From: an uncultured Planctomycetia bacterium
GTDB taxonomy: Bacteria > Planctomycetota > MHYJ01 > CAYUME01
Reading direction: 5' to 3'
NCBI GenBank assembly: GCA_964445475.1
Contig: CAYUME010000001.1
Span: forward strand, 1-36,380
DNA: 36,380 nucleotides
Part shown: positions 17,220 through 36,380 of the stretch, piece after piece
Position numbering within the stretch: position 1 is the stretch's first letter
How the letters are laid out: every line of letters begins with the position of its first letter
Notes under the pieces: model-generated
The model's database searches: none
What the model was told of the DNA's origin: nothing
The model's input: only the letters and a program-made list of their open reading frames with translations
Translations under genes and position numbers: made by a program

Positions 17220-17245
17220 TCAGGCGGCGGCGGGGCAGGCGGCGG

Positions 17246-18525: not shown

Positions 18526-20691
18526 ATGCGAAATCCACGCCGAGGCAGGTCGCGAGCAGGCGCCTGCGTTGCCTTCGGGCTGCTGCTGCCGGCCGCGGCC
18601 GGCGAGCCGGCCCCGGGGCGCGTCCAGCTCGCCTTCGACGCCCGGCAAGCGCCCGTCGCCCACGGCGCCGCGCGGCTCCGGGCCGCGCTCGAGGCCGCCG
18701 GGTGGACGGTCGGCGACGGCGGCGACGCGGCCGCCGTGCGCCTCGAGGTGGCGTCCGACCCGGCGCCGGGCGCCGCGGAGTCTTTCCGTGTCGTCCGCGA
18801 CGGCCGTGTCCTGGCGGTCCGCGGCGGCGGGCCGGCCGGCGCGATGTACGGCGCCCTGGCCGTCGCCGAGGACCTCCGCAACGGCGTGGCCCTCCGCGAC
18901 GTCCCGGAACGCGACGAAAAAGCCCGCTTCCCCTTCCGCGCCATCAAGTTCAACCTGCCGTGGATGTCCTACCGCAAGGGCGAGTCCCTCCAGCTCCACC
19001 AGCAGACCTGCCGAGACCTGGCGTTCTGGGAAGCCTTCCTGGACAGGATGGCGGAGAACCGCTTTAACGTCCTCTCCCTCTGGGGCCTCCACCCGTTCAC
19101 GCTCCTGATCCGCCCGAAGAGCTTCCCGGAGGCCTGCGGCCTCACCGATGCCGAGCTGGCCGACTGGCAGCGCTTCTGGAAATCGCTCTTCCGCATGGCG
19201 AAGGACCGCGGCATCGAGACGTACCTCGTCAACTGGAACATCTTCGTCTCGCCGGAGCTCGCGAAGGCCCGCCACGTCGCGACGTACAGCGCCGACTGGG
19301 GCTACTTCGGCTCCGGCGACACCTCCGACCTCGTCAAGCGCTACACGCGCGAGTGCGTCACGCAGGTCCTCGACGAGTACGGGGACCTCGCCGGCCTGGG
19401 CATCACGCACGGCGAGCGGATGGGCGGGATGACGCCGGAGGAGCGCCAGCAGTGGTTCCTCGACACCGTCGTCGCCGGCATGAAGGCGGCCCGGCGCCCC
19501 GCGAAGCTCATCCACCGCGCGCCGCTCTCGGCGGGCAAGGGCTCCGGCGGGTCGACCGGGGCGGCCGTCGAGAAGATGACCCGCGTGTCGATGGAGCGGA
19601 TGGACCTGCCGCAGCCGATCTGGGTCGAGATGAAGTTCAACTGGTCCCACGCCCACTCCTCGCCGCACCTGGTCCACGTCCACGGCGGCCCGCTGACGGA
19701 CGCCTACTGGAACCCGCCGCCGACGAGCTACAAGGTCGTCTGGATGGCGCGGAACGAGGACGTCTTCTGCCTGCGCTGGGGCGAGCCGGACTTCATCCGC
19801 CGGCACGTCGCGCTCAACGGCGCGCCGCACGTCGGCGGGTACTTCGTCGGCTCGGAGTGCTACATCCCGGCGAAAGACTACTTCACGAAGGACGGCCCGC
19901 CGGCCGGTGAGCCGTACGCCTTCCAGCGGCAGTGGCTCTTCTACAAGGCGTGGGGGCGGCTCCTCTACGATCCGGACACGAAGGACGACGTCTTCGCGGC
20001 GGAGTTCCGGCGGCGGTACGGGCCGGGCGGAGACAAGGTCTTCGGGGCGCTGGTGCGGGGCAGTCGCATGCCGCTCCGCCTGGCCTCCCTCTACAAGGCG
20101 ACCTGGGACTTCACGCTCTACGCCGAGGGCTTCCTCGCCCCCGCCGCCTCGGGTGGCCGGTTCGACGGGAGCTCGCCGTTCCTCTCCGTGGACGAGCTGG
20201 TCGACCACCCGGCGCTGGACCCGGACTACGTTTCGATCCGGGACTTCGTCGCGGGGGAGGCGGCGGGGCGCGCGTTTCCCGAGGGGGCGGTCACGCCGCC
20301 CGCGCTGGCCGACGTCTTGGAGCGCGACGGCCGCGAGGCGCTGCGCCTCGTCGAGGGGGTCGCGGCGGACGGGAAGCCGGTGGCCGCCGAGATCGCCGCC
20401 TGCCGCGCCTGGGCGCACCTGAGCCTCTACTTCGCCGAGAAGCTCCGGGGCGGCGTGGCGCTGCAGCGCTTCCGTCAGTCCCGCGAGGCCGCGCGGCAGC
20501 AGGAGGCGGTCGCCCGCCTGGAGCGGGCCGTCGGGCACTGGGAGGACGTGATCCGCGTCACGGAGCCGGCCTACCGCGAGGTGCCGCTCATCCACCTGGA
20601 GAAGTACAAGGACGGACGGTTCCACTGGTCGCGGTTCCTGGCGGACGTCAAGCAGGACGTGGAGATCGCACGAAAGGGGAAACGGCCGTGA
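18526..20691 (+). CDS. Secreted putative glycoside hydrolase (GH20b/GH67N-like N-terminal domain + TIM-barrel-like core; DUF4838-like)
   Basis: The ATG at 18526 follows AAGGAGGA, and a signal peptide is present. GAMYGALAVAEDLRNG resembles the GH20b/GH67N alpha/beta domain. RFPFRAIKFNLPW...ENRFNVLSLWGLHPF resembles a TIM-barrel start. The family assignment is tentative. Confidence 0.7.
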   Translation: MRNPRRGRSRAGACVAFGLLLPAAAGEPAPGRVQLAFDARQAPVAHGAARLRAALEAAGWTVGDGGDAAAVRLEVASDPAPGAAESFRVVRDGRVLAVRGGGPAGAMYGALAVAEDLRNGVALRDVPERDEKARFPFRAIKFNLPWMSYRKGESLQLHQQTCRDLAFWEAFLDRMAENRFNVLSLWGLHPFTLLIRPKSFPEACGLTDAELADWQRFWKSLFRMAKDRGIETYLVNWNIFVSPELAKARHVATYSADWGYFGSGDTSDLVKRYTRECVTQVLDEYGDLAGLGITHGERMGGMTPEERQQWFLDTVVAGMKAARRPAKLIHRAPLSAGKGSGGSTGAAVEKMTRVSMERMDLPQPIWVEMKFNWSHAHSSPHLVHVHGGPLTDAYWNPPPTSYKVVWMARNEDVFCLRWGEPDFIRRHVALNGAPHVGGYFVGSECYIPAKDYFTKDGPPAGEPYAFQRQWLFYKAWGRLLYDPDTKDDVFAAEFRRRYGPGGDKVFGALVRGSRMPLRLASLYKATWDFTLYAEGFLAPAASGGRFDGSSPFLSVDELVDHPALDPDYVSIRDFVAGEAAGRAFPEGAVTPPALADVLERDGREALRLVEGVAADGKPVAAEIAACRAWAHLSLYFAEKLRGGVALQRFRQSREAARQQEAVARLERAVGHWEDVIRVTEPAYREVPLIHLEKYKDGRFHWSRFLADVKQDVEIARKGKRP

Positions 20692-21212
20692 CCCGCGTCC
20701 ACCATGACGACATCGCGCTCGGACAGGTGGCGGACCAGTCCCGCTGGATCCTCACCGTCCGGAAGGCGGCGCCCTTCAAGAAGACGGTACCGGTCCCCAT
20801 CCACGAAGACACGGCCCGCTACCGGCCGTACCTGCGGACGTTCCTGCGGTTCGTGGTCACCGGCACGCTGCTGGGCCCCGTCGAAGAGGACCTCGAGGGA
20901 AAGACGATCGATGCGGCCCACCGGGACACGGACACGGACCTGCACTGCTATCGCCTGTACGAGGTCGAGCACATCGGCAAATCCCCGATCTACGAGCGCT
21001 ATAAGACGACGGCCGACCTCGACGCGGAGAAGGAGCTGATCCTCTTCCTGGGCTGGAAGGCGAAGGACGAGTTCCGCTATGTCGCCTACGAGTCGATGTC
21101 GAAAAAGGGGGACGTCCTCCGGGAGATCGAGCGGATCCGGAAGGACGTGCGCACCGTATACCCGAGTGCGGGAGCCTCCCCGTCCTTCGACGAGGATCCC
21201 CCTCCCCCGTGA
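20688..21212 (+). CDS. Hypothetical protein (174 aa, no signal peptide, no recognisable domain)
   Basis: The GTG start at 20688 overlaps the upstream stop (GTGA, 20688-20691). The frame has high GC3 and a non-shadow amino-acid composition (KELILFLGWKAKDEFRYVAYESMSKKGDVLREIERIRKDV). Confidence 0.6.
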   Translation: MTRVHHDDIALGQVADQSRWILTVRKAAPFKKTVPVPIHEDTARYRPYLRTFLRFVVTGTLLGPVEEDLEGKTIDAAHRDTDTDLHCYRLYEVEHIGKSPIYERYKTTADLDAEKELILFLGWKAKDEFRYVAYESMSKKGDVLREIERIRKDVRTVYPSAGASPSFDEDPPPP

Positions 21213-21298
21213 GCCGGCTCCCCCGAATTCCCGGGGCACCGGACGGCCCCATCCGTTATAATAACGCCGGACCTCGGCACATCGCAGGGGGCGCCGCC

Positions 21299-24055
21299 GT
21301 GAGCGTGCCCGGTTTTCACCCGGAGGACGAATCGGCGGCCCGGCGGCGCTGCACGGCGACGGTGTTTCGATCCGCCGCCCTCCTCGTCCTCGCCGCCCCG
21401 GCCTTCGCGGCCGACGCGCCGATCGCGCCGGACCGGCCCACCGCGATCGCCTTCCCCGCCGCCGAGGCCCGATTCGTCCGCGTCGTCATCCACGCCACCA
21501 CGCAGGGCCAGCCGTGCCTCGACGAGCTCGAGGTGTACGGCCCGGACGGGAAGGAGAACCTGGCCCGGGCCGGCGCCGGCGCGAAGGCCTCGGCCTCCTC
21601 GTGCCTCCCCGGCTACGCCATCCACCAGGTCGGGCATCTGAACGACGGCCGGTACGGCAACGACCACAGCTGGATCGCCGCGGGGACCGAGGGCGAGTGG
21701 GCGCAGATCGAGCTGCCCCGCGCGGCGACGGTCGACCGCGTCGTCCTCTCGCGCGACCGCGAAGGGCGGTTCCGCGACCGCGTCCCCGCCGCCTTCGAGG
21801 TCCGCCTCTCCCCCGACGGCGCGGCATGGAAGACGGTCGCGCGGCGCGGCGCGGCGGTGGCGTGGCCGGTGCCGCCGCTGCCGTCCGGGACGATCCCCGA
21901 GGAGGTCCTTCTCCGCTACGCCTTCGCCTGCGAGGCGCGGGCCCTCGCGCGGATTGGGATCGACCCGGTGGCGCACGCCCTGCGCCAGACGGAGGAGCTG
22001 GCGGACCGCCTCGCCGCCCGCGGGCTGGACGTGGCGGCCGAGCGGGTTCGGCTGGCGGCGCTCCGCCGCCGGGCGGAAGCGCCGGCGTCCGACGGCGTCG
22101 ATCCCGACGCGGCGCTCGGGACGCTCGTCGCCGTCCGCCGGGCGAAGCGGGGGCTCTTCCTCCGGGACCCCGCCCTCGCGCCGCTCGAGACGGTCCTCTT
22201 CGTCAAGCGCCAGCCGTTCGTCCCCTCGCACAACTACAGCGACCTCTTCGACGCGCAGGGCGGCCCCGGCGGCGGCGTCTATCTCCTGCGGATCCCGCGC
22301 CCGGGAGGCCGGCTGGCGCCGGACGCAGCGACGCTCGTCCCCCTCTTCGAGACCCGCGACGGCGTCTGCCGCGATCCCGCCGCGGACTTCGACGCGCGCC
22401 GCGTCCTCTTCGCCTGCCGGGAGTCGCGGGACGGCTACTTCCACCTGCGGGAGGTCCGCCCCGACGGCAGCGGCCTCCGGACGCTCACGGACGGCCCCTT
22501 CCACGACGTCTACCCCTGCCCGCTCCCCGACGGCGGCCTCGCCTTCGTCTCCACCCGCTGCAAGGCGCGCTTCCTTTGCTGGCGCCCGCAGGCGTACGTC
22601 CTCTTCCGCATGGACGCCGGCGGCGGGGACATCCGTCCGCTCTCGCACGCCAACCTGAGCGAGTGGGCGCCGTCGGTGATGGGCGACGGGCGGATCCTCT
22701 GGACCCGGTCGGAGTACCTCGACAAGGGCGCCGACTTCGGCCACACCCTCTGGGCGATCCGCCCCGACGGGACCTACCCGGAGCTGGTCTTCGGCAACAA
22801 CACGCGGTTCTGCTACGCCAACGCCCGGGAGGTGCCGGAGACTGGCGAGCTCTGCTGCACGCTGATCTCGCACGGCGGCGACCTCAACGGCCCGATCGCC
22901 TTGGTCCGCCGGCAGGACACGGTCGCCGACCCCGCGGCCGTCCGCACCCTCACTCCGGACGTGAGCCCCCACTTCCACATGAGCTGGGCGCGGCGCGCGT
23001 GCTTCCGCGACCCGTTCCCGATCGGCCGGGACCTCGTCCTCTGCAGCCACGCGCCCGACGACCGGTTCGGCCTCTACGTCATCGATCGCTTCGGCAACCG
23101 GGAGGTCCTGTACCTGGACCCCGCCCTCGGCAGCATGGCGCCGTCGCCGTTCCGGGCGGTTCCGGTGCCGCCCGTGCCCGGCGGCGCGGCGGCGCAGCCG
23201 GAAGACCCGGAGCGCCTCGGCCGCCTCTTCATGAGCGACGTCTACCGGGGGCTGGCGCCGGCGGTGAAGCGCGGCGCGGTGAAGTGGCTCCGCATATGCG
23301 AGGAGGTCCGGGCCGGCCTGAAGCTCCTCCCCGACGGGCAGTACCAGAAGGACCATCCGGCATTCGAAGACTGGTACGCGACGCCGACCCACAAGGTCCG
23401 CGGCCCGCACGGCTGGCCCAGCTACGTGGCGAAGGCCTCCCTCGGCCTCGTGCCGGTCGAGGCGGACGGCTCCGCCCACTTCTACGTGCCCGCCGGCAAG
23501 GTGATCTACTTCCAGGCGTTGGACGAACGGCTCAACGAGCTGCAGCGGATGCGGAGCGTGCTCCAGCTGCAGCCGGGCGAGGCGCGGGGGTGCGTCGGCT
23601 GCCACGAGAGCCGGCTGGAGGCGCCGGCGCCGCACCCGACGACGGCCCTGCACCGGCCGCCGAGCGTCCCGCAGCCGCCGCCGTGGGGCGCGGTCCCGTT
23701 CTCGTACGAACAGGTCGTGCAGCCCGTCTGGGACGCCCGGTGCGTCCGTTGCCACGACGCGTCGGACGCGAAGGGGCTCGACCTGAGCGGGGCGCGGGAC
23801 GCCGAGAAGGTGCCCGCCTCGTACCGGACGCTGATCGAAGGGGGGTGGGTGCACTATTTCGACTACGCGTGGGGCCGCGAGCACGACAAGGCGGCCCCGC
23901 TCTCGTTCGGGACGCTCCGGAGCCGGCTCCTGTCCTTCCTCGAGCCCGGCCACCACGACGTGCGCGTGACCGCCGACGAGCGGCGCGCGGTGACGTGCTG
24001 GATCGACCTGAACGTCCCCCTCTGGCCGGACTATGTCTACCGGCCGGAGCGGTGA
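21299..24055 (+). CDS. Secreted discoidin(F5/8 type C)-like + PD40-like beta-propeller protein with two CxxCH motifs (paralogue of 9842..12379)
   Basis: I prefer the GTG at 21299 because it follows an AT-rich TTATAATAA (21256-21264). The in-frame GTG at 21209 is also possible. It has a signal sequence (FRSAALLVLAAPAFA) and discoidin-like ARFVRVVIHAT...CLDELEVYG and EWAQIELPRAATVDRVVL segments. The CxxCH motifs are at 23591-23605 and 23741-23755. Confidence 0.85.
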   Translation: MSVPGFHPEDESAARRRCTATVFRSAALLVLAAPAFAADAPIAPDRPTAIAFPAAEARFVRVVIHATTQGQPCLDELEVYGPDGKENLARAGAGAKASASSCLPGYAIHQVGHLNDGRYGNDHSWIAAGTEGEWAQIELPRAATVDRVVLSRDREGRFRDRVPAAFEVRLSPDGAAWKTVARRGAAVAWPVPPLPSGTIPEEVLLRYAFACEARALARIGIDPVAHALRQTEELADRLAARGLDVAAERVRLAALRRRAEAPASDGVDPDAALGTLVAVRRAKRGLFLRDPALAPLETVLFVKRQPFVPSHNYSDLFDAQGGPGGGVYLLRIPRPGGRLAPDAATLVPLFETRDGVCRDPAADFDARRVLFACRESRDGYFHLREVRPDGSGLRTLTDGPFHDVYPCPLPDGGLAFVSTRCKARFLCWRPQAYVLFRMDAGGGDIRPLSHANLSEWAPSVMGDGRILWTRSEYLDKGADFGHTLWAIRPDGTYPELVFGNNTRFCYANAREVPETGELCCTLISHGGDLNGPIALVRRQDTVADPAAVRTLTPDVSPHFHMSWARRACFRDPFPIGRDLVLCSHAPDDRFGLYVIDRFGNREVLYLDPALGSMAPSPFRAVPVPPVPGGAAAQPEDPERLGRLFMSDVYRGLAPAVKRGAVKWLRICEEVRAGLKLLPDGQYQKDHPAFEDWYATPTHKVRGPHGWPSYVAKASLGLVPVEADGSAHFYVPAGKVIYFQALDERLNELQRMRSVLQLQPGEARGCVGCHESRLEAPAPHPTTALHRPPSVPQPPPWGAVPFSYEQVVQPVWDARCVRCHDASDAKGLDLSGARDAEKVPASYRTLIEGGWVHYFDYAWGREHDKAAPLSFGTLRSRLLSFLEPGHHDVRVTADERRAVTCWIDLNVPLWPDYVYRPER

Positions 24056-24130: not shown

Positions 24131-25789
24131 TCACATCCGCAGCGTCTGGTAGAACATGTGCACGGGCGATCCGCCGAAGGCGATGGCCAGGGCGACCGCC
24201 TCGCCCATCTCGGCCTCCGTGGCGCCGGCCTTTCGCGCGGCATCGGCGTAGATCTTCACGCACGGGTCGCACCGCCGGGCCACCGCCAGCGCCAGCCCGA
24301 TCAGCTTCTTCGTCTTGAGGTCCACCGCGCCCGGCATCGAGACGGCGTTCTGGTAGGCCTTGAAGGCCTCCAGGAGCGCCGGCGGCAGCGGCGGCTTTCC
24401 CTCGCCGGCCGGCCCGGCCGCCGGGGCGGCCATCGCGGCCGGGGGGGGGCTCGCGCAGCAGGCCGTCTCGACCGGCGGGCCGCCGGCACAGCACGCGGCG
24501 TCGGGTGCCGGGGCGGGTGTCGCCGCCGGGGCCGGCGCCTTCGCCGTCTCGCGACGCGGCGGGGCGAGCGGCGCGAAGTCGGCTGCCTGCCTTGTCGAGG
24601 CCCGGATGAATCCGCCCGGTTTCGCGCCCGTCACGCGGCCGACAACCGCCGCGCGCGCGAAGCCGCCCGCCCGCACCTCCTCCGCGTAGGCCGCCGCCGC
24701 GTCCGGCGGCAGGAAGACGAGGAGCCCCCCGGACGTCTCCGGCCCGAAGAGGATGTGGCGCTGGGCCGGCGCGAGGGCGGAGAGGTCGAGGCGCGCCGGG
24801 TCGGCCGACTCCGCGTTCCGCTCGACCGCCCCCGGCAGCACCTCCTGGCGCGCCAGCTCCGCGACGCCCGGGAAGAGCGGGAGGGCGTCGACGTCGAGCG
24901 CGACCTCGACGCCGGAGGCCCGCGCGACGTTGGCGAGGTGTCCGAGGAGGCCGAAACCCGTCACGTCCGTGGCCGCGTGCGCGCCGCGCGCCGCCATCCG
25001 CTCCGCCGGGAGCCGGTTGAGCGCCGCCATCGACCGGGTCGCCTCCGCGAGCCCGTCCGCCGGCGCCCGGCCGAGCTGCCGGGCGAAGGCGAGGATGCCG
25101 GCGCCGAGGGGCTTGGTGAGGACGACGGCGTCCCCGGCCTTCGCGCCCGCGTTGGAGGCGAGCCCCTTCCGCGGCGCCGACCCGACGACGGCGAAGCCGA
25201 ACTTCACCTCCTCGTCGTCGATGCTGTGGCCGCCGATCACGCTGATCCCCGCCTCGGCCATCGCGTCGATGCCGCCGCGGAGGATCTCCCGCATCGCGTC
25301 GAGGGGCAGGGCGTGGACGGGGAAGCCGAGGATCGAGAGGGCGACCTCGGGCTTCCCCCCCATCGCGTAGATGTCGCTGACCGAGTTCGCCGCGGCGACC
25401 CGGCCGAACGTGTAGGGGTCGTCGACGGACGGCGAGAAGACGTCGACCGTGAGGACCGTCGTGCCGTCGGGCCGGAAGTCGATGACGCCGGCGTCGTCCC
25501 CCGCCGCCCGGCCGATGACGATCCGGGGGTCGGCGACGTCGGGGAGGCCGGCGAGGGCGGCCTCGAGGTCCCGCTGCGAGATCTTCGAGGCGCAGCCCGT
25601 CCTGCGGACGTGCTCGGTGAGGCGGACGGCGCCCGTCGCGGCCGGCGGCCGCTCGCCGGCGCACGCGCAGCGGTCCCGCGTCCGGAAGTCCTCGCACGGG
25701 CAGGGGAGCTGCGGGTTGCAGACGCAGTGGCCGAGCGCGATCGAGCGTTTCATGATGCGGCGCCGCTTCTCGAGCTGGTCGGGCGTCAT
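24131..25789 (-). CDS. selD: Selenide, water dikinase (selenophosphate synthetase SelD) fused to an N-terminal 3xCxC module and a C-terminal AhpD/carboxymuconolactone-decarboxylase-like CxxC domain
   Basis: The SelD/PurM-fold motifs are intact: TGCASKIS (Cys/Lys active-site loop), GDDAGVIDF, VDDPYTFGRVAAANSVSDIYAMGGKP, VIGGHSIDD and ATDVTGFGLLGH. The extra modules are described in the separate sub-features. Confidence 0.85.
   Translation of the reverse strand: MTPDQLEKRRRIMKRSIALGHCVCNPQLPCPCEDFRTRDRCACAGERPPAATGAVRLTEHVRRTGCASKISQRDLEAALAGLPDVADPRIVIGRAAGDDAGVIDFRPDGTTVLTVDVFSPSVDDPYTFGRVAAANSVSDIYAMGGKPEVALSILGFPVHALPLDAMREILRGGIDAMAEAGISVIGGHSIDDEEVKFGFAVVGSAPRKGLASNAGAKAGDAVVLTKPLGAGILAFARQLGRAPADGLAEATRSMAALNRLPAERMAARGAHAATDVTGFGLLGHLANVARASGVEVALDVDALPLFPGVAELARQEVLPGAVERNAESADPARLDLSALAPAQRHILFGPETSGGLLVFLPPDAAAAYAEEVRAGGFARAAVVGRVTGAKPGGFIRASTRQAADFAPLAPPRRETAKAPAPAATPAPAPDAACCAGGPPVETACCASPPPAAMAAPAAGPAGEGKPPLPPALLEAFKAYQNAVSMPGAVDLKTKKLIGLALAVARRCDPCVKIYADAARKAGATEAEMGEAVALAIAFGGSPVHMFYQTLRM
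24134..24388 (-). other. C-terminal AhpD/CMD-like domain of the SelD fusion with CxxC (RRCDPCV)
   Basis: The domain spans about aa 468-552 (LLEAFKAYQNAVSMPGAVDLKTKKLIGLALAVARRCDPCVKIYADAARKAGATEAEMGEAVALAIAFGG). This is the pattern typical of carboxymuconolactone decarboxylase / alkylhydroperoxidase AhpD family domains. Confidence 0.6.
25655..25732 (-). other. N-terminal Cys-rich module of the SelD fusion (CVC-x5-CPC-x8-CAC)
   Basis: The module spans about aa 20-45 (GHCVCNPQLPCPCEDFRTRDRCACAG). It carries six Cys arranged as three CxC pairs. Confidence 0.6.
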
Positions 25790-25893
25790 GGCGCTGTCCC
25801 TTCCAAGGTTCCGGGTCGCGCGAGCGCCGGGAAAACGGCCCGGGGCCGTCCCGGAGCGCTCACCCCGTCATCCGTCCCTCTGTCGACGAGCCG

Positions 25894-26685
25894 TCAGGCG
25901 TCGGGTCCCGTCCGTCCCCGGCGGCACGCGAGGATCGCCGCCCCGAGGGCCCCGGTCATCTGGGGGTCGGGCGCCACGGCGACCGGCGTCCCGAGCGCCT
26001 CCGCGAGCGCCTCCGCCATCCCCGGGATCCGCGCCACCCCCCCCGTGAAGAAGACGGGCGTCTCCACCCGCCGCCCCGCCATCCCCGCCACGCGCGAGGC
26101 GATCGACTTCTGGACGCCCGCGACGATGTCCGCCGGCGGCGTCTCCTGCGTCAGCAGGCCGATGATCTCCGTTTCGGCGAAGACGACGCACATGCTGCTG
26201 ATCGCCGCCGGCGCGGTCGCGGCGCGGGCGAGCGCCCCCAGCCCGTCGAGCGGCACGCCGAGGCGCGCCGCCACGACCTCCAGGAACCGACCCGTTCCCG
26301 CCGCGCACCGGTCGTTCATCGCGAAGTCCTGCACGGTCCCGTCGGGGGCCAGCCGCAGCAGCTTCGCGTCCTGGCCGCCGATCTCGACGACCGTCGCGGC
26401 GCCCGGGGCGACGCGGCGGACCCCGGCGGCGTGGCAGGTGATCTCGGTGACGGCGGCGTCGGCGAAGCCGATCGCGTGGCGCGCGTAGCCCGTGGCGACG
26501 ACGGCCCCGACGTCGCTCCGCCGCCGGCCGCAGTCCGCCAGGAGGCGGTCGAGGAGTGCGGCGGCGACCGTCTCGGGCTTGAGGCCCGCGTCGACGGCCC
26601 CCGCGGCGAGGAACGAGTCCCTCGCGGGGTCCAGGAGCGCGACCTTGGTCGCGCGCGAGCCGCTGTCCACGCCGGCGCAGATCAT
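25894..26685 (-). CDS. BcrAD/BadFG/HgdC-family ATPase (activator of 2-hydroxyacyl-CoA dehydratase-type enzymes)
   Basis: The ATG at 26685 is preceded by GGAGGTG, 2 nt after the upstream stop. It has ASKHA motifs (GVDSGSRATK, EIGGQD). It also has NDRCAAGTGRF and SSMCVVFAETE, the two Cys that hold the bridging [4Fe-4S] cluster in HgdC-type activators. Confidence 0.9.
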   Translation of the reverse strand: MICAGVDSGSRATKVALLDPARDSFLAAGAVDAGLKPETVAAALLDRLLADCGRRRSDVGAVVATGYARHAIGFADAAVTEITCHAAGVRRVAPGAATVVEIGGQDAKLLRLAPDGTVQDFAMNDRCAAGTGRFLEVVAARLGVPLDGLGALARAATAPAAISSMCVVFAETEIIGLLTQETPPADIVAGVQKSIASRVAGMAGRRVETPVFFTGGVARIPGMAEALAEALGTPVAVAPDPQMTGALGAAILACRRGRTGPDA

Positions 26686-26687
26686 CG

Positions 26688-28070
26688 TCACCTCCGTGCG
26701 CGTGCCGTTTCGACGAGCGCCTCGAGCCGGGAGCGGATCGAGGGCGCGAGGGCGTCGGTGAGGGGCGGCACCTCGACCTCGGCCACAGGCAGGCCCAGCC
26801 GTTCCCGGACCGCCGCCGCGATCGTCTCGCCCTCCCACGCGCAGTGGCTCGCCCCGGGGATGCGCGAGACGACTACCGCCTCCGCGCCGAACCGCGCCGC
26901 GTCCGCCGCGATCCGCGCCGCGCGGTCCGCCGCGGGCCCGACCATCGGGTCGGCCAGCGCCGCCCGCGCCAGCGCCTCCATCGGTTCCACGCCCTCCGGG
27001 AGGGGGTCGAGGGCGTGGCAGAAGAGGAACTCTGTCCCGCAGAGCCGTCCCCCGCACGCCTCGAGCAGGTTCATCGCGCGGAGGTCGGCGACGGGGTTGA
27101 CCCAGAAGACGCGGACGGCGTCGGCCGGCAGGACGGCCGTCCCGGCCGCGACGCGCGCGCGGACCTCGCCGAGGAGGGCGTCGTAGACGCGGAGCGTCTC
27201 GTCGCGGTCCGAGCAGAAGTGGATGACGAGCATCTCCGCGATCTGGTGCTCGAGGGCCGGGAGGGGGCAGGCGGGGGCGGTGAAGACGAGCTCGCGGAGC
27301 GCGGCGAGTCGCCCGCGGACGGCGTTCGCGGCGCGGATCCCCGCCGCCAGCTCCGCGTCCGTCAGCGCGTGGCCCGTCAGCCCGTCGAGGGCGCGGCGGA
27401 CGCGGACCAGCTCCTCGCGGACGAGGGCGACCTGCGCGGCCGGGGCGCGGAGGCCGCCGGGGAGCGCCGTCGCGGGCTCGCCGGGCTCCGGCGCGCGCCG
27501 CGCGGGCATCTCCCACCAGAGGATCGGGTGGCCGAGCGACGCGAGCCGCTGGGCCACCGCCGAGAGGTCGTCGCAGACGGCCCCGACGCTCGAGACGAGG
27601 AGGTCGGGGATCGGGAAGTGCCGGCGGGAGACGAAGGCGCCGAGCAGGGCGCGGACGGGGCAGAGCCCCTCGCCGGCGCCGAGCGCGCTCGCGATCCCGA
27701 GGAGCCCCTCGCTCATCTCCATGATGCAGGGGATCCACCACGCCCCGTCCGTGTAGAAGGCGGTCACCCGGGGGTAGGCGTAGGCGAGGACGGTGACGGT
27801 GCCGAGGTCCTTCATCGCGCCGACGAGCGTGTGGCCCGCGGTCCGCGCCTGCGCCAGGCGCTCCTCCTCCGTCAGCAGGAAGTTCCAGAGGCGGAGGGCC
27901 GCGGGGGAGGGGTCGTACGTCAGCCGGAGGAGGCGGCGGTCGCCGTCGCGCACGTGGCGCGCGAGCGGCCCGGCGTAGGGGTAGGGCGGATCCGGGCGCG
28001 GCGAGGCCGCCCGCGCCGCGCAGAGCGCGTCGAGCTCCTCCATCGTGAGCGGCCGCGCCGTCTCCGTCAT
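26688..28070 (-). CDS. 2-hydroxyacyl-CoA dehydratase / benzoyl-CoA reductase family (HGD-D, BcrC/BadD/HgdB-type) subunit, large
   Basis: It is 460 aa, taken from ORF 26688..29063 and starting at the ATG at 28070 (MTETARPL). It has HGD-D-like segments (GAVCDDLSAVAQRL, VFWVNPVADLRAMNLLEACGG, EAVVVSRIPGASHCAWE). An ATGA overlap with the upstream gene suggests translational coupling. Confidence 0.8.
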   Translation of the reverse strand: MTETARPLTMEELDALCAARAASPRPDPPYPYAGPLARHVRDGDRRLLRLTYDPSPAALRLWNFLLTEEERLAQARTAGHTLVGAMKDLGTVTVLAYAYPRVTAFYTDGAWWIPCIMEMSEGLLGIASALGAGEGLCPVRALLGAFVSRRHFPIPDLLVSSVGAVCDDLSAVAQRLASLGHPILWWEMPARRAPEPGEPATALPGGLRAPAAQVALVREELVRVRRALDGLTGHALTDAELAAGIRAANAVRGRLAALRELVFTAPACPLPALEHQIAEMLVIHFCSDRDETLRVYDALLGEVRARVAAGTAVLPADAVRVFWVNPVADLRAMNLLEACGGRLCGTEFLFCHALDPLPEGVEPMEALARAALADPMVGPAADRAARIAADAARFGAEAVVVSRIPGASHCAWEGETIAAAVRERLGLPVAEVEVPPLTDALAPSIRSRLEALVETARARR

Positions 28071-29029
28071 CGCAGCATCCCCCCGAACGCCTCGCTCCGC
28101 CCGTCCACCCCCGGCCCCGCCCCGCCGTCCCCGTCGAGGGCGAGGGCGAGGCCGGGCCGGCCCGTCGCCGCCGCGATCCGCTCCGCGTGCGCCGCCCACG
28201 GGTCGCACCAGACGGGGCGGACGAGAAGGACGCCGCGCGCCCCCGAGAGGGGGACCTCGCGCCGCAGCCAGGCGTAGAGCGCGTCGTCCGGCCGGCGCGA
28301 GACGTCGGGGAGCGATCCCGCGTAGGCCTCGACGAGGACGGCGAGCGGCTCGGCGTCGAGCCGCCGGCGGTCGAACCGCGCCGGGAGCGTCCGCGCCCCC
28401 GTCTCGGTGCCGTCGAGGACGCCGGACCCGCCGGCGCGGGCGATCCGGTCGACGAGGGCGGCGTCCTGCGCGCCGAGCGGGCCGCCGACGAGGGCGAGGG
28501 GGACGCGCCGCGCGGGGGGCGGGTCGGGCCCCTCGTGCGCCCCGGGTCCGGCGAAGAGCCGGTCGAAGGCGCGAGGGCCCCGGCGCGCCGCCTCCGCGAG
28601 GACCTCCTCGCGCAGGGCCTCGTGGCGCCGCATCGCGGCGGCCAGCCCCGCCGGCGCCGGCGCGTGTCCGCCCCACGACGCGACGGCCCCTGCCAGCCGC
28701 TCGAGCTCGTCCCGGTAGAGCCGCAGCGCCGCGGGCGTCTGCCACGTCGTCGGGACGTTCAGGAGGAATGTCCGGGCGGCGCCGGCGGCCGCCCGCTCGG
28801 CGGCGCGCCGCATCTGGTCGCACGTCGTCGCGAAGACGAAGGCTCCGGCGTCGCGCCCGGCGAGGGCGGCCGAGAGGGTCGCCCGGGCGAAGGCGCAGGC
28901 GCCCGTCGCCGGGCCGGCGTCCCGGGCGTCCCGGCGCGGGCGGATCCGGACCGGCTCCGCCCCGCAGGCCTCCAGCCATTCCGGCGGGACGAACGGCGAG
29001 ACGTATGCGACCCGAAGCCCGTCGGCCAT
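28067..29029 (-). CDS. HGD-D family subunit, small (partner of 26688..28070)
   Basis: ORF 28067..29113 trimmed to the ATG at 29029 (MADGLRVAYVSPFVPPEWLEACGAEP). It has FATTCDQMRR (the conserved CD motif of the family) and GVLLVRPVWCDPW. Its stop overlaps the next start (ATGA at 28067-28070). Confidence 0.75.
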   Translation of the reverse strand: MADGLRVAYVSPFVPPEWLEACGAEPVRIRPRRDARDAGPATGACAFARATLSAALAGRDAGAFVFATTCDQMRRAAERAAAGAARTFLLNVPTTWQTPAALRLYRDELERLAGAVASWGGHAPAPAGLAAAMRRHEALREEVLAEAARRGPRAFDRLFAGPGAHEGPDPPPARRVPLALVGGPLGAQDAALVDRIARAGGSGVLDGTETGARTLPARFDRRRLDAEPLAVLVEAYAGSLPDVSRRPDDALYAWLRREVPLSGARGVLLVRPVWCDPWAAHAERIAAATGRPGLALALDGDGGAGPGVDGRSEAFGGMLR

Positions 29030-29096
29030 GGCCCGCCGCTCCCGACCTGTCGCGACCTGACATCCGGGCGGGGACAAGCCCCGCCCCTCCCGCGCG

Positions 29097-29900
29097 TTAC
29101 CGCTTGCGCGCAAGGAAGAGGCCCTGCGCGATCTTGCCGGCGTCGGCCAGCCCCTTCATGAAGATCATCTCCCCCGCCAGTCCCTGGAGCATCGCCGCGT
29201 CCCAGCCGATGATCCGCAGGGCGTCGGAGGTGAGCTGCATGTCGATCATCCGGAGGTAGAGGTCGCAGTACGGCGCGAACCGCTTCGTGTCCTCGGCGGC
29301 GAGGACCTCGCAGCCGGCCTTCTCGAGGAGCGACCGGTAGCCGCCGAGGTCCTGGACGGAGGGGAACTTCATGAACGCCAGGTAGCGGTCCGCCTCGGCG
29401 TCGGAGAGCCCCGCCGCCCCCTCGATCCAGTCGGTGAAGGCGATCGTGCCGCCGGGCTTGACGAGCCGCGCCGCCTCGGCGACCAGCTTCGCCTTGTCGG
29501 CGACGTAACACCACGCGTCCTCGCCCCAGACGAAGTCCGCCGCGACGTCCGGCAGGCCGCTGGCGGTGACGTCCTGGAGGACGAACGCGATCTTGTCGGC
29601 CAACCCCTCCTCCCGGCAGCGGCGCTTCCCGACCTCGACGACGGTGGGGGTGGCGTCCACGCCGGTCATCGAGGCGACGCCCCGGAACCGGACGAGGAAG
29701 CGCATGCCGGCGCCGCTGCAGCAGCAGAGGTCGATCCCCTTGCTGCCGGGGGCGATCTTCGCGCGCTCGGCGAGATCCATCGACGACTTGAATCCGCCGA
29801 TGTGGATCTGCTGGCCCATGATCAGCTCCCAGAGGACCCCCTCCGGGCCGCCGTACACCGCCTGCACGTTCGCCAGCCCGATCCCCGCCTTCGTCTTCAT
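29097..29900 (-). CDS. Class I SAM-dependent methyltransferase
   Basis: It is 267 aa, starting at the ATG at 29900. Motif I is GIDLCCCSGAGMRF, the acidic loop is VDATPTVVE, and VKPGGTIAFTDW is also present. The substrate cannot be called. Confidence 0.85.
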   Translation of the reverse strand: MKTKAGIGLANVQAVYGGPEGVLWELIMGQQIHIGGFKSSMDLAERAKIAPGSKGIDLCCCSGAGMRFLVRFRGVASMTGVDATPTVVEVGKRRCREEGLADKIAFVLQDVTASGLPDVAADFVWGEDAWCYVADKAKLVAEAARLVKPGGTIAFTDWIEGAAGLSDAEADRYLAFMKFPSVQDLGGYRSLLEKAGCEVLAAEDTKRFAPYCDLYLRMIDMQLTSDALRIIGWDAAMLQGLAGEMIFMKGLADAGKIAQGLFLARKR

Positions 29901-29938
29901 CGCTCTCCCCCTTGCATTGTGGTATGTCCATGCCGTCT

Positions 29939-31153
29939 TCAGTTGCGAGCCGCCGCACGCGATCGCGCCGTCTCGTAGAGCGCCTCGACCCGCACCGCGA
30001 TCCGCGCGGAGTCGGACGGCGCGTAGTCGGTGCTGATCCGCAGGCACGGCAGCCCCAGCTCCCCCTCGACGAGCGCCTTCACGCGTGCCGACTCGACGTC
30101 GTACGTCAGGCAGGCCTGCCACGACAGGTCGATGACGCACTGCGGGCGGTACTCGGCGGCGAGCCGGCGGAGGAGGTCGAGCCGCCGGTCGTTCGGCGTC
30201 ATGACGGAGCAGGGCAGGTGGAAGTACTTCTCCGCAATCGCCCGCAGCGGGTCCGGTGCCTCCGCGTCGACGTCGTCGACGATCGGCTTGAGGCCGGTGC
30301 AGGACTCGAGGGCGACGACGAGACCGCCGTGGTCCTCGACGATGTCCATGACGCGCTCGGCGCCGTGGGCCATCGGGACGCCGGTCATGAGGACGCGGAC
30401 CCGCTTCGCCAGGTCGGGGCTGGGCGGGCGGGCCTTGAGGGCGGCCAGCGCCTTCTCGTAGGCGGCGATGTCGCAGGGGATGCAGGAGATGATGCTCTTC
30501 AGGTCGAGCAGCTCGCGACCGCGGAGCGGCGGGGGCGAGGCCTTCATGCAGGCGGCCAGCGCGCGCCGCAGCGCCCGCTCGCGGTTCATCTCGCGGATCG
30601 CTTTCCGAAGGGCGCAGTCGGTGACCGTCGCGCCGAACCGGCGCTCGAGCCCTTCCTTCAGGCCCCGCACCTCGTGGAGCCAGTGGTCGAATGCCGCGGG
30701 GTCGTCCGCCTTCTGCGGGAGCTCCAGCACGTGCATCGGCCGCGTCCGCGCCATCAGCTCGTACATCTTTTTCTTCCCGTCGCACGTCGTCTCCGCCACG
30801 ACGAGATCGGCCATCTCGAGAAAGGGGTTCGACTTCTGCACGTGGTAGCCGTACGTGGACTTGATCAGCGGACAGAGGTTGGCGGGGAGCTCGGCCTCGG
30901 CGTCGGGGATGGTCCTGTCGGAGCCGCCGCAGAGGCAGACGGGCACGGCGTTCGCGGCGAGGATGACCTCGCGGGGGGTGTACTCGCAGAGGATCCCGAC
31001 GATCCTCCGCCCGTTCGCCTTCGCCTCCTGGGCGTATTGGAGGCAATTGGGGGCCATCCGGGCGAACCGCCCGAAGGGGTCGCCGGTAGGGGCGGCGGCG
31101 GCCGGTGCGCCACCGCACGCCGTGGCGGGCCGGGTTCCGCAGCAGTCGCTCAT
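29939..31153 (-). CDS. Stand-alone HGD-D family protein, double-cubane-cluster-protein (DCCP)-like
   Basis: It is 404 aa, with GGAGGA upstream of the ATG at 31153. It has RIVGILCEYTPREVILAANAVPVCLCG, VVAETTCDGKKKMYE and LESCTGLKP...QACLTYD. It is Cys-rich, including an N-terminal MSDCCGTRPATACGG. Confidence 0.8.
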   Translation of the reverse strand: MSDCCGTRPATACGGAPAAAAPTGDPFGRFARMAPNCLQYAQEAKANGRRIVGILCEYTPREVILAANAVPVCLCGGSDRTIPDAEAELPANLCPLIKSTYGYHVQKSNPFLEMADLVVAETTCDGKKKMYELMARTRPMHVLELPQKADDPAAFDHWLHEVRGLKEGLERRFGATVTDCALRKAIREMNRERALRRALAACMKASPPPLRGRELLDLKSIISCIPCDIAAYEKALAALKARPPSPDLAKRVRVLMTGVPMAHGAERVMDIVEDHGGLVVALESCTGLKPIVDDVDAEAPDPLRAIAEKYFHLPCSVMTPNDRRLDLLRRLAAEYRPQCVIDLSWQACLTYDVESARVKALVEGELGLPCLRISTDYAPSDSARIAVRVEALYETARSRAAARN

Positions 31154-31590: not shown

Positions 31591-32454
31591 ATGGCCAAGA
31601 TCCCCCACTACGGCGCGCGCCGAAACGTCGGCGCCTACGAGCGCCCCTTCTCGGGCGTCGGGGAGGAGTTCGAACCGCTCGGAATCGCCCCCGGCGGGAC
31701 GGGCTTCGTCCTCCACGAGACCGGCTACTGGCCGCAGGACCGCTACTGGAACTTCCCGAACGTCTACAGCCCGTTCTGGCGGGCGATGTACGACTACCGG
31801 GCGGGGCATGCCGTCCGGTTCGGGGGGCGCGTCACGCCGCTGGGGCCGGGGCGCGTGGTCATCATTCCCAACCACCAGCGGTTCGACTGCCTGGGCGACC
31901 CCCCGGTCCCTTCGCTCTGGTTCGCCTTCTCCTGCCGCCGGAGCGCCGACCCCCGGCAGCCGATGCCGATCGCCGTTCCGCTCACGCCCGTCCTGCGCGC
32001 CTACGTCAACGAGTTCCCGGCGGTTTTCCGTGCCCGCGGCCCGGAGCGGCGCGAGGGGATCCGGCGGCTGAGCGAGTCGTTCCTCCTCTATCTGCTCGCC
32101 CGGCCGGAGATCCGCTGGCAGCCGCCGGTGCCGGAGCCGATCGCGCGGGTGGTGGCGCAGGTCAACGAGCGGCCGGGCGAGGGGTGGCGGAACCCGGAGC
32201 TCGCGCGCCGGGCCTGCATGAGCGAGGACGGCTTCATCCGGGCCTTCCGGCAGTGGATGAACCGGACGCCGGCGCGGTACGTCGCCGAGGTGCGGATCCG
32301 CGAGGCCTGCCGGATGATGACGGAGACGGACCGGTCGATCGACGCGGTCGCCGACACCCTCGGCTTCCCCGACCGCTTCTGCTTCTCCCGCGTCTTCAAG
32401 CGGCTCACCGGCCTCACCCCCGCGCGTTACCGCAGGTCCCGGCGGCGGGAGTGA
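31591..32454 (+). CDS. AraC/XylS-family transcriptional regulator (divergent from the SelD operon)
   Basis: It has a C-terminal double HTH (LARRACMSEDGFIRAFRQWMNRTPARYVAEVRIREACRMM...GFPDRFCFSRVFKRLTGLTPARYRR). Confidence 0.9.
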   Translation: MAKIPHYGARRNVGAYERPFSGVGEEFEPLGIAPGGTGFVLHETGYWPQDRYWNFPNVYSPFWRAMYDYRAGHAVRFGGRVTPLGPGRVVIIPNHQRFDCLGDPPVPSLWFAFSCRRSADPRQPMPIAVPLTPVLRAYVNEFPAVFRARGPERREGIRRLSESFLLYLLARPEIRWQPPVPEPIARVVAQVNERPGEGWRNPELARRACMSEDGFIRAFRQWMNRTPARYVAEVRIREACRMMTETDRSIDAVADTLGFPDRFCFSRVFKRLTGLTPARYRRSRRRE

Positions 32455-34934: not shown

Positions 34935-36380
34935 CTACCGGCGCTTCGCCCGGTAGCGGCCTTCGATGTCCAGCGTGTTGTCATCCTGGAGCACGTGACG
35001 GAGACCGCCTTCGACGACCGCCGTCTTGTCGTCCTGGACCGTGTAGGGCTTCTTCCAGCCCTGCGTCTCCCCCTCCTTGAATAGGCAGAGGCCGTCCGGC
35101 GTGAACTCGCGCGAGTAGGATTTCCCTGCATGCGTGTACGCCCAGGTTCCCAGGATCCGGTGGCTCTCGATCCGCACGGGCTTGGGCGGCGCGGGGGGCT
35201 CGGGTCCTTTCGTCCGCTCCTGGAGCTCCTTCAGCACGGACCAGTCCGCCGCGGTCTTGTCGAAGTTGAGGATCCGGATCTCCAGCGGCTTCAGCTCGAG
35301 CGAGATCGTGTCGCCCAGGGCGTATTCCGTCTTGAGCCCCTCGACGCAGTCGGCCATCGGCGAGGAAAGCCGGAAGGGGCCGCTGCCCGGCAACAGGCCG
35401 AACGCGCGGTCGAGGGTGAAGCGGTACGTCCGGGCCGTGTCGGCCGGATTGTGAATGGAAACGTAGCCCTGCGTCCCATTCCATGCCGTGTAGCCGTACA
35501 CCTCGCCGGCCTTCGGACTGCCGCCGTGCATCCGCGAACGAAGGAAGGCGGGGAAGACGTGATAGGCCCAGTGCAGCCCTTCGGCGATCACGTCCCAGTC
35601 GTAGTCCTGCAGGACCCGCGGCTTGATGTAAAGCTCGATGAAGCCCGTCCCGCGCGACAGATTCATGTAGAGGTACTTGCGGAAGACCTCCTGGGTCTCC
35701 CCGCTGCGCGTCTTCTTCGGCTCGTGGTTGAAGAGGGCGTGCAGGGGGAACTGGGTCCGCTCCCGGGTCCAGATCTCGTGGTACCGGTCGTCGCGATAGA
35801 CCAGCTCCTGGGTCCGGGTGCTTCCGCCCGCGGCGTCCCCCGCGTTGATCATCCAGACCGAATCGACGTGCATCAGCCACCAGGAGCTGAGATAGGCGCC
35901 GTTGGAGATGACGAGGTAGACGTCCGGGTTGGCCTCGGCCATCTTCTGGAAGATCCGGATCAGGCGTTCCGTCCCCGCGGTCAGGTAGTAGATCTTCAGC
36001 TCGTCGTACGTTGCGTCGTTCAATCTGGCGTCGCCGTCCGACAGGCCCTCGATCCCGAGCTGCGGCATGTAGGGAATGCCGTACTGCTCGCCGTGGAGCT
36101 CGAAGTTGCGCAGGTGGAGGTGTCCGAAAAGCCCGTCCAGTTTGAAATAGGTGACCCCCTGCTTTGTCAGCTCGACCATGCGGTCTTCGAGGAGCTGCAT
36201 GTACCGGGGGCCGGCCAGCGACATCCAGTCGCTGAGCGCCTCGAATCCCTTCTCGCGGTACTGCTTGACCGCGCGGCTCGAGCCGAACAGGCAGCCGGGG
36301 CTCAACCACAGGCCCAGCGTGGAATCGGCCGCGCGCACGGTCTCCCGGCTGAAGGCGAAGTCCGGATCGAACTTTCCGTT
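34935..36380 (-). CDS. Clan GH-D (GH36/GH27-like) alpha-galactosidase-like glycoside hydrolase, 5'-truncated by the window edge
   Basis: The frame stays open beyond the track's 'M' (a GTG at 36338) to position 36380 (NGKFDPDFAFSRETVRAADS...). GVTYFKLDG resembles the nucleophile strand of GH36/27. The family call is tentative. Confidence 0.65.
   Translation of the reverse strand, partial: NGKFDPDFAFSRETVRAADSTLGLWLSPGCLFGSSRAVKQYREKGFEALSDWMSLAGPRYMQLLEDRMVELTKQGVTYFKLDGLFGHLHLRNFELHGEQYGIPYMPQLGIEGLSDGDARLNDATYDELKIYYLTAGTERLIRIFQKMAEANPDVYLVISNGAYLSSWWLMHVDSVWMINAGDAAGGSTRTQELVYRDDRYHEIWTRERTQFPLHALFNHEPKKTRSGETQEVFRKYLYMNLSRGTGFIELYIKPRVLQDYDWDVIAEGLHWAYHVFPAFLRSRMHGGSPKAGEVYGYTAWNGTQGYVSIHNPADTARTYRFTLDRAFGLLPGSGPFRLSSPMADCVEGLKTEYALGDTISLELKPLEIRILNFDKTAADWSVLKELQERTKGPEPPAPPKPVRIESHRILGTWAYTHAGKSYSREFTPDGLCLFKEGETQGWKKPYTVQDDKTAVVEGGLRHVLQDDNTLDIEGRYRAKRR

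Follow-up and report, generated by a model that had tools for sequence, protein, structure and literature searches.

What an ATP-driven iron–sulfur reductase system might do beside SelD, the selenide, water dikinase, is the question raised by an operon in a 36,380-nucleotide stretch of DNA from an uncultured Planctomycetia bacterium (contig CAYUME010000001.1; "the window" below always means this whole stretch). Six consecutive minus-strand open reading frames (ORFs) at 24131–31153 encode, in this order, a double-cubane cluster protein (DCCP), a class I S-adenosylmethionine (SAM)-dependent methyltransferase, a small and a large HGD-D subunit, an HgdC/DCCP-R-type ATPase (hereafter the activase) and a SelD fusion protein. 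A first-pass annotation of the window had proposed these six genes with their coordinates, gaps and domains, and all of them were confirmed by the ORF listing, by reading of the junctions, and by Pfam and NCBIfam scans with curated equivalog cutoffs. The intergenic gaps from the DCCP gene to the SelD gene are 38, 67, −4, 2 and 104 nt. The two HGD-D genes share an ATGA overlap at 28067–28070, through which the small subunit is predicted to be translationally coupled to the large subunit, and the junction between the large HGD-D and activase genes reads TGAcgATG (26685–26688). Our comparison with relatives indicates that the first five genes form a conserved module that accompanies the selenocysteine (Sec) pathway, and we tentatively suggest that this module may provide SelD with selenide.

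The module was delimited through a neighbourhood census of 80 metagenome loci seeded on the large HGD-D subunit (58–92% identity), which fall into 22 clusters when grouped at 80% identity and into 4 when grouped at 70%; the denominators below are the loci testable for each neighbour. The small HGD-D gene lies directly upstream of the large HGD-D gene in 62/62 loci, and the activase gene directly downstream of it in 60/61. Both the DCCP and the methyltransferase genes are present in every testable locus (33/33 each). The genes for DCCP, methyltransferase, small and large HGD-D and activase are therefore a near-invariant module. By comparison, the fusion SelD gene directly follows the activase gene in 22 of the 38 testable loci; 3 others carry it at another place, and in the remaining 13 the flank has no fusion SelD gene. 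When the loci are grouped into lineage clusters at 80% identity, about 10 of the 14 with enough flank carry a sel gene there.

The same association is seen from the side of SelD. The SelD-fusion family comprises at least 120 clusters, all with the AIRS, AIRS_C and CMD domains, mostly from Planctomycetota and additionally from Lentisphaeria, Verrucomicrobiota and others. Among 12 fusion-SelD loci, at least six of which come from a genome-collection scan (among the matches listed), the full module stands beside the fusion SelD gene in L001, L003, L004, L006, L008 and L087, and in L086 the activase gene lies at the contig end. By comparison, the same scan yielded 74 ordinary SelD loci (again among the matches listed), of which only one (L047) has DCCP and activase genes nearby, so that the module is found at 6–7/12 fusion-SelD loci versus 1/74 ordinary SelD loci (Fisher p about 1e-5 to 1e-6). 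The gene order varies among relatives: DCCP precedes or follows the methyltransferase, SelD stands before or after the module, and selA and selB are divergent or co-directional. This variation in order and orientation argues for selection and not for shared descent of a single island. Furthermore, the adjacency recurs in lineages with as little as 36% identity, among them Lentisphaeria, Verrucomicrobiota and Planctomycetota. The arrangement is far beyond chance and recurs, reshuffled, in dozens of distinct lineages. The co-conservation of the SelD fusion with the HGD-D, HgdC-type and methyltransferase genes across lineages, on which the first-pass annotation had made its idea depend, thus holds, and the earlier proposal that strongly reducing Fe–S chemistry, methyl transfer and selenium are functionally tied is well founded on it. 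As a separate observation, the long-read contig L087 has its large HGD-D and methyltransferase genes each split into two ORFs (15868–19116), which are either assembly frameshifts or pseudogenes.

The relatives also reveal to which pathway the fusion SelD belongs. Its gene is located between or beside selA and selB in L004, L006, L007, L010, L086, L087 and L171, and a tRNA-Sec gene abuts the fusion SelD gene or the activase gene in at least nine loci. In L171, a single strand carries, in order, selA, the SelD fusion, selB, one unassigned gene, a DUF3034 gene, and the genes for the methyltransferase, DCCP, small HGD-D, large HGD-D and activase. In these relatives, the fusion SelD is the SelD of the selenocysteine pathway and not a dedicated second copy. 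Because the fusion SelD of the relatives adjoins selA, selB and tRNA-Sec, the operon is probably not anchored on a separate SelD, and the first-pass view of a "SelD-anchored" pathway of its own has to be revised: the conserved unit is the five-gene module, an accessory of the Sec-utilisation trait whose core can also stand alone (for example L169 and L172).

In addition to the sel genes, several genes that are absent from the window recur beside the module. In at least 15 loci, a gene directly upstream of or inside the module encodes a DUF3034 protein that has a signal peptide and ends in Phe, and is hence predicted to be outer-membrane-like (for example L171 8795–9754, L172 10860–11801 and L158 5858–6871). 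Judging by their titles, the papers found to mention DUF3034 concern neither selenium nor this system. A NapH/MauN-type membrane 4Fe-4S protein is encoded beside the module in 17 loci and may be the electron entry point for the activase. Together with the secreted proteins encoded nearby, these neighbours suggest an imported substrate and a membrane-linked electron feed. Genes for SelU, YqeB/YqeC or SenA/SenB were found neither among the scanned window genes (Pfam and NCBIfam) nor in the annotated flanks of relatives. The NapH/MauN-type gene lies downstream of the fusion SelD and tRNA-Sec genes or of selB, often preceded by a gene for a small membrane protein (for example L159 19505–20368, L004 4231–5331 and L086 13434–14585). 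Tandem arrays of up to four small (~150–190 aa) and one larger (~427 aa) related proteins, secreted or membrane-anchored and without a family match, are found upstream of the methyltransferase gene in 22 loci (for example L106, L113, L120, L131 and L157–L161), and L003 carries a gene for a YdjY-domain protein between those for SelD and the methyltransferase.

The DCCP of the window belongs to the NF040772 family and matches the DCCP of C. hydrogenoformans (PDB 6ENO and 7YYL) with 185 bits. Its residues C56, C73/C75, C94, C124, C285, C315 and C348 are invariant in 6–7 orthologues and align with the cluster cysteines of 7YYL/6ENO, so that the full set of Cys ligands for an [8Fe-9S] double-cubane cluster is predicted to be kept. 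With the C. hydrogenoformans DCCP/DCCP-R system (Jeoung and Dobbek), it shares the family, the cluster cysteines and an HgdC-type ATPase gene alongside in the operon; this cognate ATPase is likewise present in 60/61 relatives, and electron injection is presumed to be ATP-driven here, as in DCCP/DCCP-R. In contrast to that system, the window DCCP carries an additional Cys-bearing N-terminal tail, with the pattern MxxC(C)G...C in most lineages, and always stands together with a second HGD-D pair of the heterodimer type and the methyltransferase, and usually with SelD and Sec genes. In vitro, DCCPs are known to act only on acetylene, azide and hydrazine (PMC11971306).

In profile–profile comparison, the small and large HGD-D subunits align clearly with the DCCP family (hhalign E = 5e-19 and 4e-18, respectively). 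C45, C70 and C275 are the sole invariant cysteines of the small subunit and align with C94, C124 and C348 of DCCP, as do C137, C166 and C410 of the large subunit, in which C286 is an additional, family-specific invariant Cys. Each member of the pair is thus predicted to keep only a three-Cys [4Fe-4S] site, and this three-Cys set is the signature of the open-site catalytic [4Fe-4S] cluster in HadB and BzdO according to the 2025 BzdNO structure paper (PMC11971306). The pair therefore shares the fold family, the open-site cysteines and the type of activase with the HadBC/HgdAB dehydratases and the class I benzoyl-CoA reductase BzdNO. Unlike the characterised HadBC and BzdNO subunits, it gives equivalog scores for HadC, BzdN and BcrC that are far below cutoff or nil. 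In the NCBIfam scan, neither subunit matched the HadC, BzdN or BcrC models, and the double-cubane model was their only match (24 and 45 bits for the small and large subunits, respectively; cutoff 350). The loci differ as well: no CoA-transferase, CoA-ligase, acyl-CoA dehydrogenase or ferredoxin gene is found among the scanned window genes, as the first-pass annotation had observed, and no CoA-ester partner gene is among the recurrent module neighbours in 88 loci. The same fold also gives TudS, a [4Fe-5S] sulfur-transfer enzyme (PMC11971306). The large subunit barely matches any PDB sequence and marks a narrow, sharply bounded subfamily, with 279 of 1.84 billion representatives at E <= 1e-3 and 97 at E <= 1e-30. 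Two proteins of the representative library, P0373 and P0385 (~860 aa), combine an N-terminal half similar to the large HGD-D subunit (35% identity) with a second matched stretch and may be fused forms of the pair.

The activase belongs to the TIGR00241 family, and its C127 and C166, invariant in 8/8 orthologues, are at what we take to be the HgdC positions bridging the [4Fe-4S] cluster of the dimer. It is predicted to be the single electron-injecting partner for all three HGD-D proteins. At none of the aligned Cys positions of the module proteins is a TGA (Sec) codon found.

The SelD fusion has three parts, a Cys-rich N-terminal module, the SelD core, and a CC linker with an AhpD-like CxxC domain, which were analysed with alignments of 16 and then 118 fusion proteins. 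In the N-terminal Cys-rich module, H21, C22, C24, C30, P31, C32, F35, C41 and C43 are kept in all or at least 90% of the 118 proteins. This module has no Pfam, NCBIfam or PDB sequence match; its AlphaFold model was poor with the 16-sequence alignment and reached a predicted local distance difference test (pLDDT) score of 84–94 with the 118-sequence alignment. A Foldseek search with this fold gave no significant match. The catalytic chains of ferredoxin:thioredoxin reductase (FTR) take four of the top 10 places with non-significant E values of 5–7, and hhalign places the CPC-x8-CxC of the module exactly on C74/C76...C85/C87 of FTR with a probability of 14%. The FTR catalytic subunit (PDB 1DJ7, 2PVD and 7C3F) has three CxC pairs, serving a [4Fe-4S] cluster and a redox-active disulfide, and the same CPC-x8-CxC spacing, whereas the first CxC pair of the N-module lies 5 residues upstream instead of 16, and the module is half the size and has no Pfam match.

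The core of the fusion is predicted to be a selenide, water dikinase by both its family score and its catalytic residues, and is modelled with pLDDT 80–97. In its G65-C66-A-S-K69 loop, all 118 fusion proteins keep G65 and K69, and at least 90% of them keep C66. In 54 of the 74 ordinary SelD loci (among the matches listed), an in-frame TGA (Sec) stands where residue 66 aligns, which identifies C66 as the catalytic Cys/Sec site; C66 and K69 are presumably the counterparts of the catalytic C17 and K20 of E. coli SelD. Every fusion SelD locus examined has Cys at this position, compared with TGA in 54/74 of the ordinary loci (L012–L085). The linker after the core is predicted to be disordered (pLDDT ~31–34) and is unconserved except for its vicinal CC pair, which is invariant in the 16 proteins and at least 90% conserved in the 118. 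The CxxC of the C-terminal AhpD-like domain (C507 and C510) is conserved to the same degree (at least 90% of the 118) and aligns with that of the closest structures, the small CxxC CMD/AhpD proteins 7Y4R and 5DIK. The ArsM-AhpD and MduS selenoprotein models also match this domain with their AhpD halves. NifS-SelD and Ndh-SelD, the SelD fusions already known (Zhang et al. 2008, PMC2398784), likewise join a SelD core to a redox or selenium-handling domain, presumably for selenide delivery; unlike these, the window SelD adds a six-Cys N-module, a CC linker and a C-terminal AhpD/CMD CxxC domain. No mention of a SelD-AhpD architecture was found in the SelD papers searched.

The closest solved relatives of the methyltransferase are phosphoethanolamine N-methyltransferase, sarcosine/dimethylglycine N-methyltransferase and MitM. 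Its conserved cysteines are C59–C61 (motif I), C131 and C197, and it shares at least 70% identity with more than 120 database clusters. The enzyme matches the ArsM, ArsM-AhpD and DVU_1556 models weakly. We rejected an identity as ArsM on the scores (37 bits for NF008823, cutoff 263; 38 bits for NF041537, cutoff 510), and membership of DVU_1556 was likewise rejected on score. The ArsM-AhpD and MduS fusion selenoproteins (NF041537 and NF045649) combine a class I methyltransferase with an AhpD-like CxxC/CxxU domain, and both halves have a weak match in the operon, one in the methyltransferase and the other in the AhpD domain of SelD. In contrast to these selenoproteins, the two parts lie on separate proteins here, no Sec codon is present at the aligned Cys, and the scores are far under the cutoffs. 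A contig labelled Deltaproteobacteria (L170, 10001–11186) encodes a methyltransferase 73% identical to the operon enzyme and has no HGD-D genes. The gene for an SMR-family efflux pump follows after 4 nt; the pairing resembles a resistance locus and may offer a clue to the class of substrate that the methyltransferase uses.

A link between DCCPs and selenium has been noted before. Haft and Gwadz, who built NF040772, reported that 955 of 970 DCCPs of this family occur in SelD-positive genomes, left this unexplained, named a Se-bridged cluster as a formal possibility, and regarded an indirect link as likelier than new chemistry (bioRxiv 10.1101/2022.07.06.499078). Type I mlp clusters for methyl-selenide carry DCCP and DCCP-reductase genes alongside selABCD (PMC10418091). 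The selenium island of Slackia heliotrinireducens contains genes for two 2-hydroxyglutaryl-CoA dehydratase subunits and an activase, listed without comment by Lin et al. 2015 (PMC5322559, Table 1), and these genes are STRING partners of YedE, YedF and LysR_Se (PMC5322559). All three cases resemble the operon in that DCCP or HGD-D and activase genes co-occur with or near selD, selA or selB in anaerobes. By comparison, these reports give a genome-level correlation or bare gene lists and do not cover the PVC superphylum, and none describes a HAD-like heterodimer encoded in a fixed operon together with this methyltransferase and a SelD-AhpD fusion. The first-pass statement that no SelD context uses HGD-D/HgdC components is therefore right only in part. 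No description of this operon, the small/large HGD-D pair or the SelD-AhpD fusion was found in the open-access papers and preprints searched, and a dedicated model for any of the three is lacking in NCBIfam release 20. The system is a variant within the ATP-dependent Fe–S reductases of the benzoyl-CoA reductase (BCR), 2-hydroxyacyl-CoA dehydratase (HAD) and DCCP type, with a new SelD architecture and probably a new selenium-related function.

As to this function, we tentatively favour a role of the module as an ATP-driven reductive unit that mobilises or buffers selenium and feeds selenide to SelD, which we regard as quite possible. The activase would spend ATP to put electrons of very low potential into DCCP and/or the heterodimer, and these would reductively free selenide from a source beyond ordinary thiol chemistry, the candidates being elemental or polymeric selenium or an externally acquired compound with C–Se or S–Se bonds. 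By our own thermodynamic estimate, the Se0/HSe− couple lies at about −0.7 V at pH 7, beyond ordinary ferredoxin, and this value, which fits a low-potential reduction, is one reason for proposing supply. The selenium would be handed on Cys-bound along flexible arms, namely the N-terminal tail of DCCP, the CC linker of SelD and the CxxC of the AhpD domain. The Cys-rich N-domain, possibly a small Fe–S or disulfide unit, would aid the reduction of the S–Se bond at C66, and SelD would then form selenophosphate for SelA. The methyltransferase would most likely methylate selenide or a selenol, either capping the toxic free pool or activating the substrate; alternatively, it might methylate a cluster-bound chalcogenide. 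It is the least explained part of the proposal and its weak point.

Further reasons for proposing supply come from the gene context. The module is without a selenophosphate-using enzyme, and its proteins show no likeness to SelA, SelU, SenB or YqeB/YqeC in the Pfam and NCBIfam scans. The first-pass idea of a biosynthetic product derived from selenophosphate is therefore not favoured, and selenide supply or handling upstream of SelD fits better. Consistent with supply, an outer-membrane-type protein sits in the operons of relatives, DCCPs recur in other selenium-salvage contexts, and the domains fused to SelD in known cases presumably deliver selenide (PMC2398784). The integrity of the module, its linkage to Sec genes and the retained cysteines of DCCP, the heterodimer, the activase and SelD likewise speak for it, as do the near-confinement of NF040772 DCCPs to SelD-positive genomes and the HGD-D and activase genes of the Slackia island. 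There is also a precedent in TudS, in which an HGD-D fold can act in chalcogen transfer via a [4Fe-5S] state (PMC11971306). Several points weigh against the proposal. The direction of selenium flow comes from context only, and the SAM methyltransferase has no obvious place in a selenide-releasing pathway; its subfamily is not exclusive to the module, given the 73%-identical enzyme that stands without an HGD-D gene beside the SMR pump (L170). About a third of the testable loci (13/38; L169 and L172) have the module but no SelD gene in the surrounding 10 kb, and the fusion SelD is without the module within 10 kb in 5 of its 12 loci. The window itself has no selA, selB, tRNA-Sec, DUF3034 or NapH-like gene. 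The 80 loci are not independent, since a few sediment projects contributed many of them, and the non-significant resemblance of the N-module to FTR is a lead and not a finding.

A reversed flow of selenium is somewhat unlikely. SelD would then feed activated selenium to the module, either for a Se-containing Fe–S cluster in DCCP or the HGD-D pair (for example a Se-bridged [8Fe-8S-Se] double cubane or a [4Fe-4S]-Se site, with the pair perhaps as an assembly scaffold) or for a methylated organoselenium metabolite, the first-pass reading. The physical linkage of the module genes to SelD agrees with this, as does the formal option of a Se-bridged cluster that Haft and Gwadz gave for the DCCPs of SelD-positive genomes. 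The family has members with an extra cluster chalcogen, the [4Fe-5S] state of HAD-beta and TudS; the presence of two divergent paralogues alongside a typical DCCP is reminiscent of scaffold/enzyme pairs; and the methyltransferase gains a natural role in making a methylated product. However, no module protein resembles the known selenophosphate-dependent transferases, and the adjacent SelD is, in relatives, a selenocysteine-pathway enzyme flanked by selA, selB and tRNA-Sec. Its accessory domains look like acceptors and reducers of incoming selenium, as in NifS-SelD and Ndh-SelD, and an imported substrate is suggested by the outer-membrane-type protein that relatives encode within the operon. 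The specific claim that the module makes or uses a Se-containing Fe–S cofactor, with selenophosphate from SelD providing bridging or terminal selenide for the clusters of DCCP or the pair and with the pair as scaffold or carrier, appears very unlikely, even though it would explain the near-confinement of DCCP to SelD-positive genomes.

Two further explanations were considered. The reduction and methylation of a substrate other than a selenium compound, with the sel genes nearby through shared anaerobic regulation, co-transfer of an island or dependence on a selenoprotein, is unlikely. It would account for the roughly one third of testable loci that have no sel gene nearby (L169 and L172), for the methyltransferase subfamily in a non-selenium context (L170) and for the in vitro DCCP substrates acetylene, azide and hydrazine (PMC11971306), and it agrees with the preference of Haft and Gwadz for an indirect link over new chemistry. 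It is at odds with an adjacency that recurs in different orders and orientations across lineages down to 36% identity, with the strong enrichment over ordinary SelD loci, and with the fact that the module specifically accompanies the Cys-rich fusion SelD. Decidedly unlikely, finally, is detoxification or volatilisation, in which the reductases would take selenium oxyanions or Se0 to selenide, the methyltransferase would convert it into methylselenol or dimethylselenide, and the adjacent SelD would reflect a shared pool. The tight linkage of the module to selA, selB and selC, and not to resistance genes or transporters, is unexpected for such a function, as is the cost of an ATP-driven reduction at ultra-low potential. 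The source environments are ordinary anoxic sediments, in which, by our own inference, selenium is normally scarce. Detoxification would fit the constant presence of the methyltransferase (33/33), the resistance-like pairing of its close homologue with the SMR pump outside the module, and the weak matches of the methyltransferase and the AhpD domain to both halves of ArsM-AhpD/MduS, yet the score for ArsM itself (37 bits, cutoff 263) excludes membership of that family.

The operon bears on two questions, namely the physiological substrates of DCCPs and their restriction to SelD-positive genomes described in 2022–23. It turns a statistical link between DCCP and SelD into a fixed, widely conserved arrangement with defined partners, adding a second Fe–S heterodimer of the HAD/BCR-like type, a methyltransferase, and a SelD with three extra Cys-based redox modules. 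The arrangement offers an experimental system for the questions of how anaerobes get selenide out of poorly available selenium, or of whether selenium enters Fe–S cofactors. If the supply model is true, the module would represent the first case in which ATP-driven reduction feeds the selenocysteine pathway, and a selenium counterpart of the nitrogenase-like methylthio-alkane reductases of sulfur salvage.

The coordinates of the operon genes, of the parts of SelD and of the neighbouring regulator are given in Table 1.

Table 1. Position and basis of assignment of the operon features in the window (aa, amino acid residues of the fusion protein).
Feature	Coordinates	Strand	Basis
DCCP with Cys-bearing N-terminal tail	29939–31153	−	HGD-D; NF040772, 410 bits (cutoff 350)
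Class I SAM-dependent methyltransferase	29097–29900	−	Pfam Methyltransf_11/25/31/23
Small HGD-D subunit	28067–29029	−	PF06050, 76 bits, divergent
Large HGD-D subunit	26688–28070	−	PF06050, 100 bits, divergent
HgdC/DCCP-R-type ATPase (activase)	25894–26685	−	TIGR00241, 238 bits (cutoff 125); BcrAD_BadFG, 172 bits
Activase–SelD spacer, 104 nt	25790–25893	−	Terminator/promoter, folding and conservation scans
SelD fusion (AIRS + AIRS_C + CMD)	24131–25789	−	TIGR00476, 337 bits (cutoff 125); NF002098, 304 bits (cutoff 299)
SelD N-terminal Cys-rich module, aa 1–50	25640–25789	−	H-C-x-C-x5-C-P-C-x2-F-x5-C-x-C
SelD core, predicted selenide, water dikinase, aa 54–400	24590–25630	−	TIGR00476, NF002098, PF00586, PF02769
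SelD low-complexity linker with vicinal C444–C445, aa 401–467	24389–24589	−	Alignment, AlphaFold
SelD C-terminal AhpD/CMD-like domain, CxxC C507/C510, aa 468–552	24131–24388	−	PF02627, 55 bits (cutoff 23); TIGR00778
AraC-type regulator, divergent, upstream of the operon	31591–32454	+	Family scan

The spacer between the activase and SelD genes was considered as a transcript boundary. A consensus scan found no terminator or promoter in the spacer or anywhere else inside the operon, and the spacer folds with no extra stability over shuffled sequences (z = −0.28). At 25830–25860 on the minus strand, a weak 5-bp GC hairpin (ACGGC...GCCGT) is followed by TTTT, and it is not kept in the 88%-identical relative L001. 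No conserved element was found in the spacer. We rejected a boundary here, because the hairpin is neither beyond shuffles nor conserved. The run of T is nevertheless unusual for a region of 75% GC.

The divergent AraC-type regulator that had been noted upstream of the operon is present and is not conserved with the module; it was rejected as a module regulator, since no orthologue adjoins the module in other loci. The window contains two AraC-type regulators, at 4801–5619 (+) and 31591–32454 (+), which are 29% identical, and neither has an orthologue adjoining the module elsewhere. Across the 36-kb window, no tRNA and no SelA or SelB match was found, and an Rfam scan of the whole window gave no match. 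The sole match of the PADLOC defence scan is a generic methyltransferase. The remaining scanned genes encode sugar-related, regulatory and large secreted-type proteins, none of a selenium, CoA-ester or ferredoxin family, and the ORFs at 12917–14938 and 18013–20691 (both large) and at 34935–36380 have no family match.

A URO-D family protein is encoded at 3630–4919 (−), beside RhaT-like and FGGY kinase genes. The UroD superfamily includes MtaA-like methyltransferases that were recently tied to methyl-selenide use, and nothing ties this gene to the operon 20 kb away. Two large paralogues, at 9815–12379 (+) and 21209–24055 (+), are 31% identical and share a middle domain of the hydrazine-synthase-alpha type (PF18582). 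A homologue is encoded near the module in the closest relative L001, at 16594–19119 (−), and in none of the other fetched loci. A haem-binding-type motif is present in one of the two window paralogues, and an F5/8 type C domain in the other.

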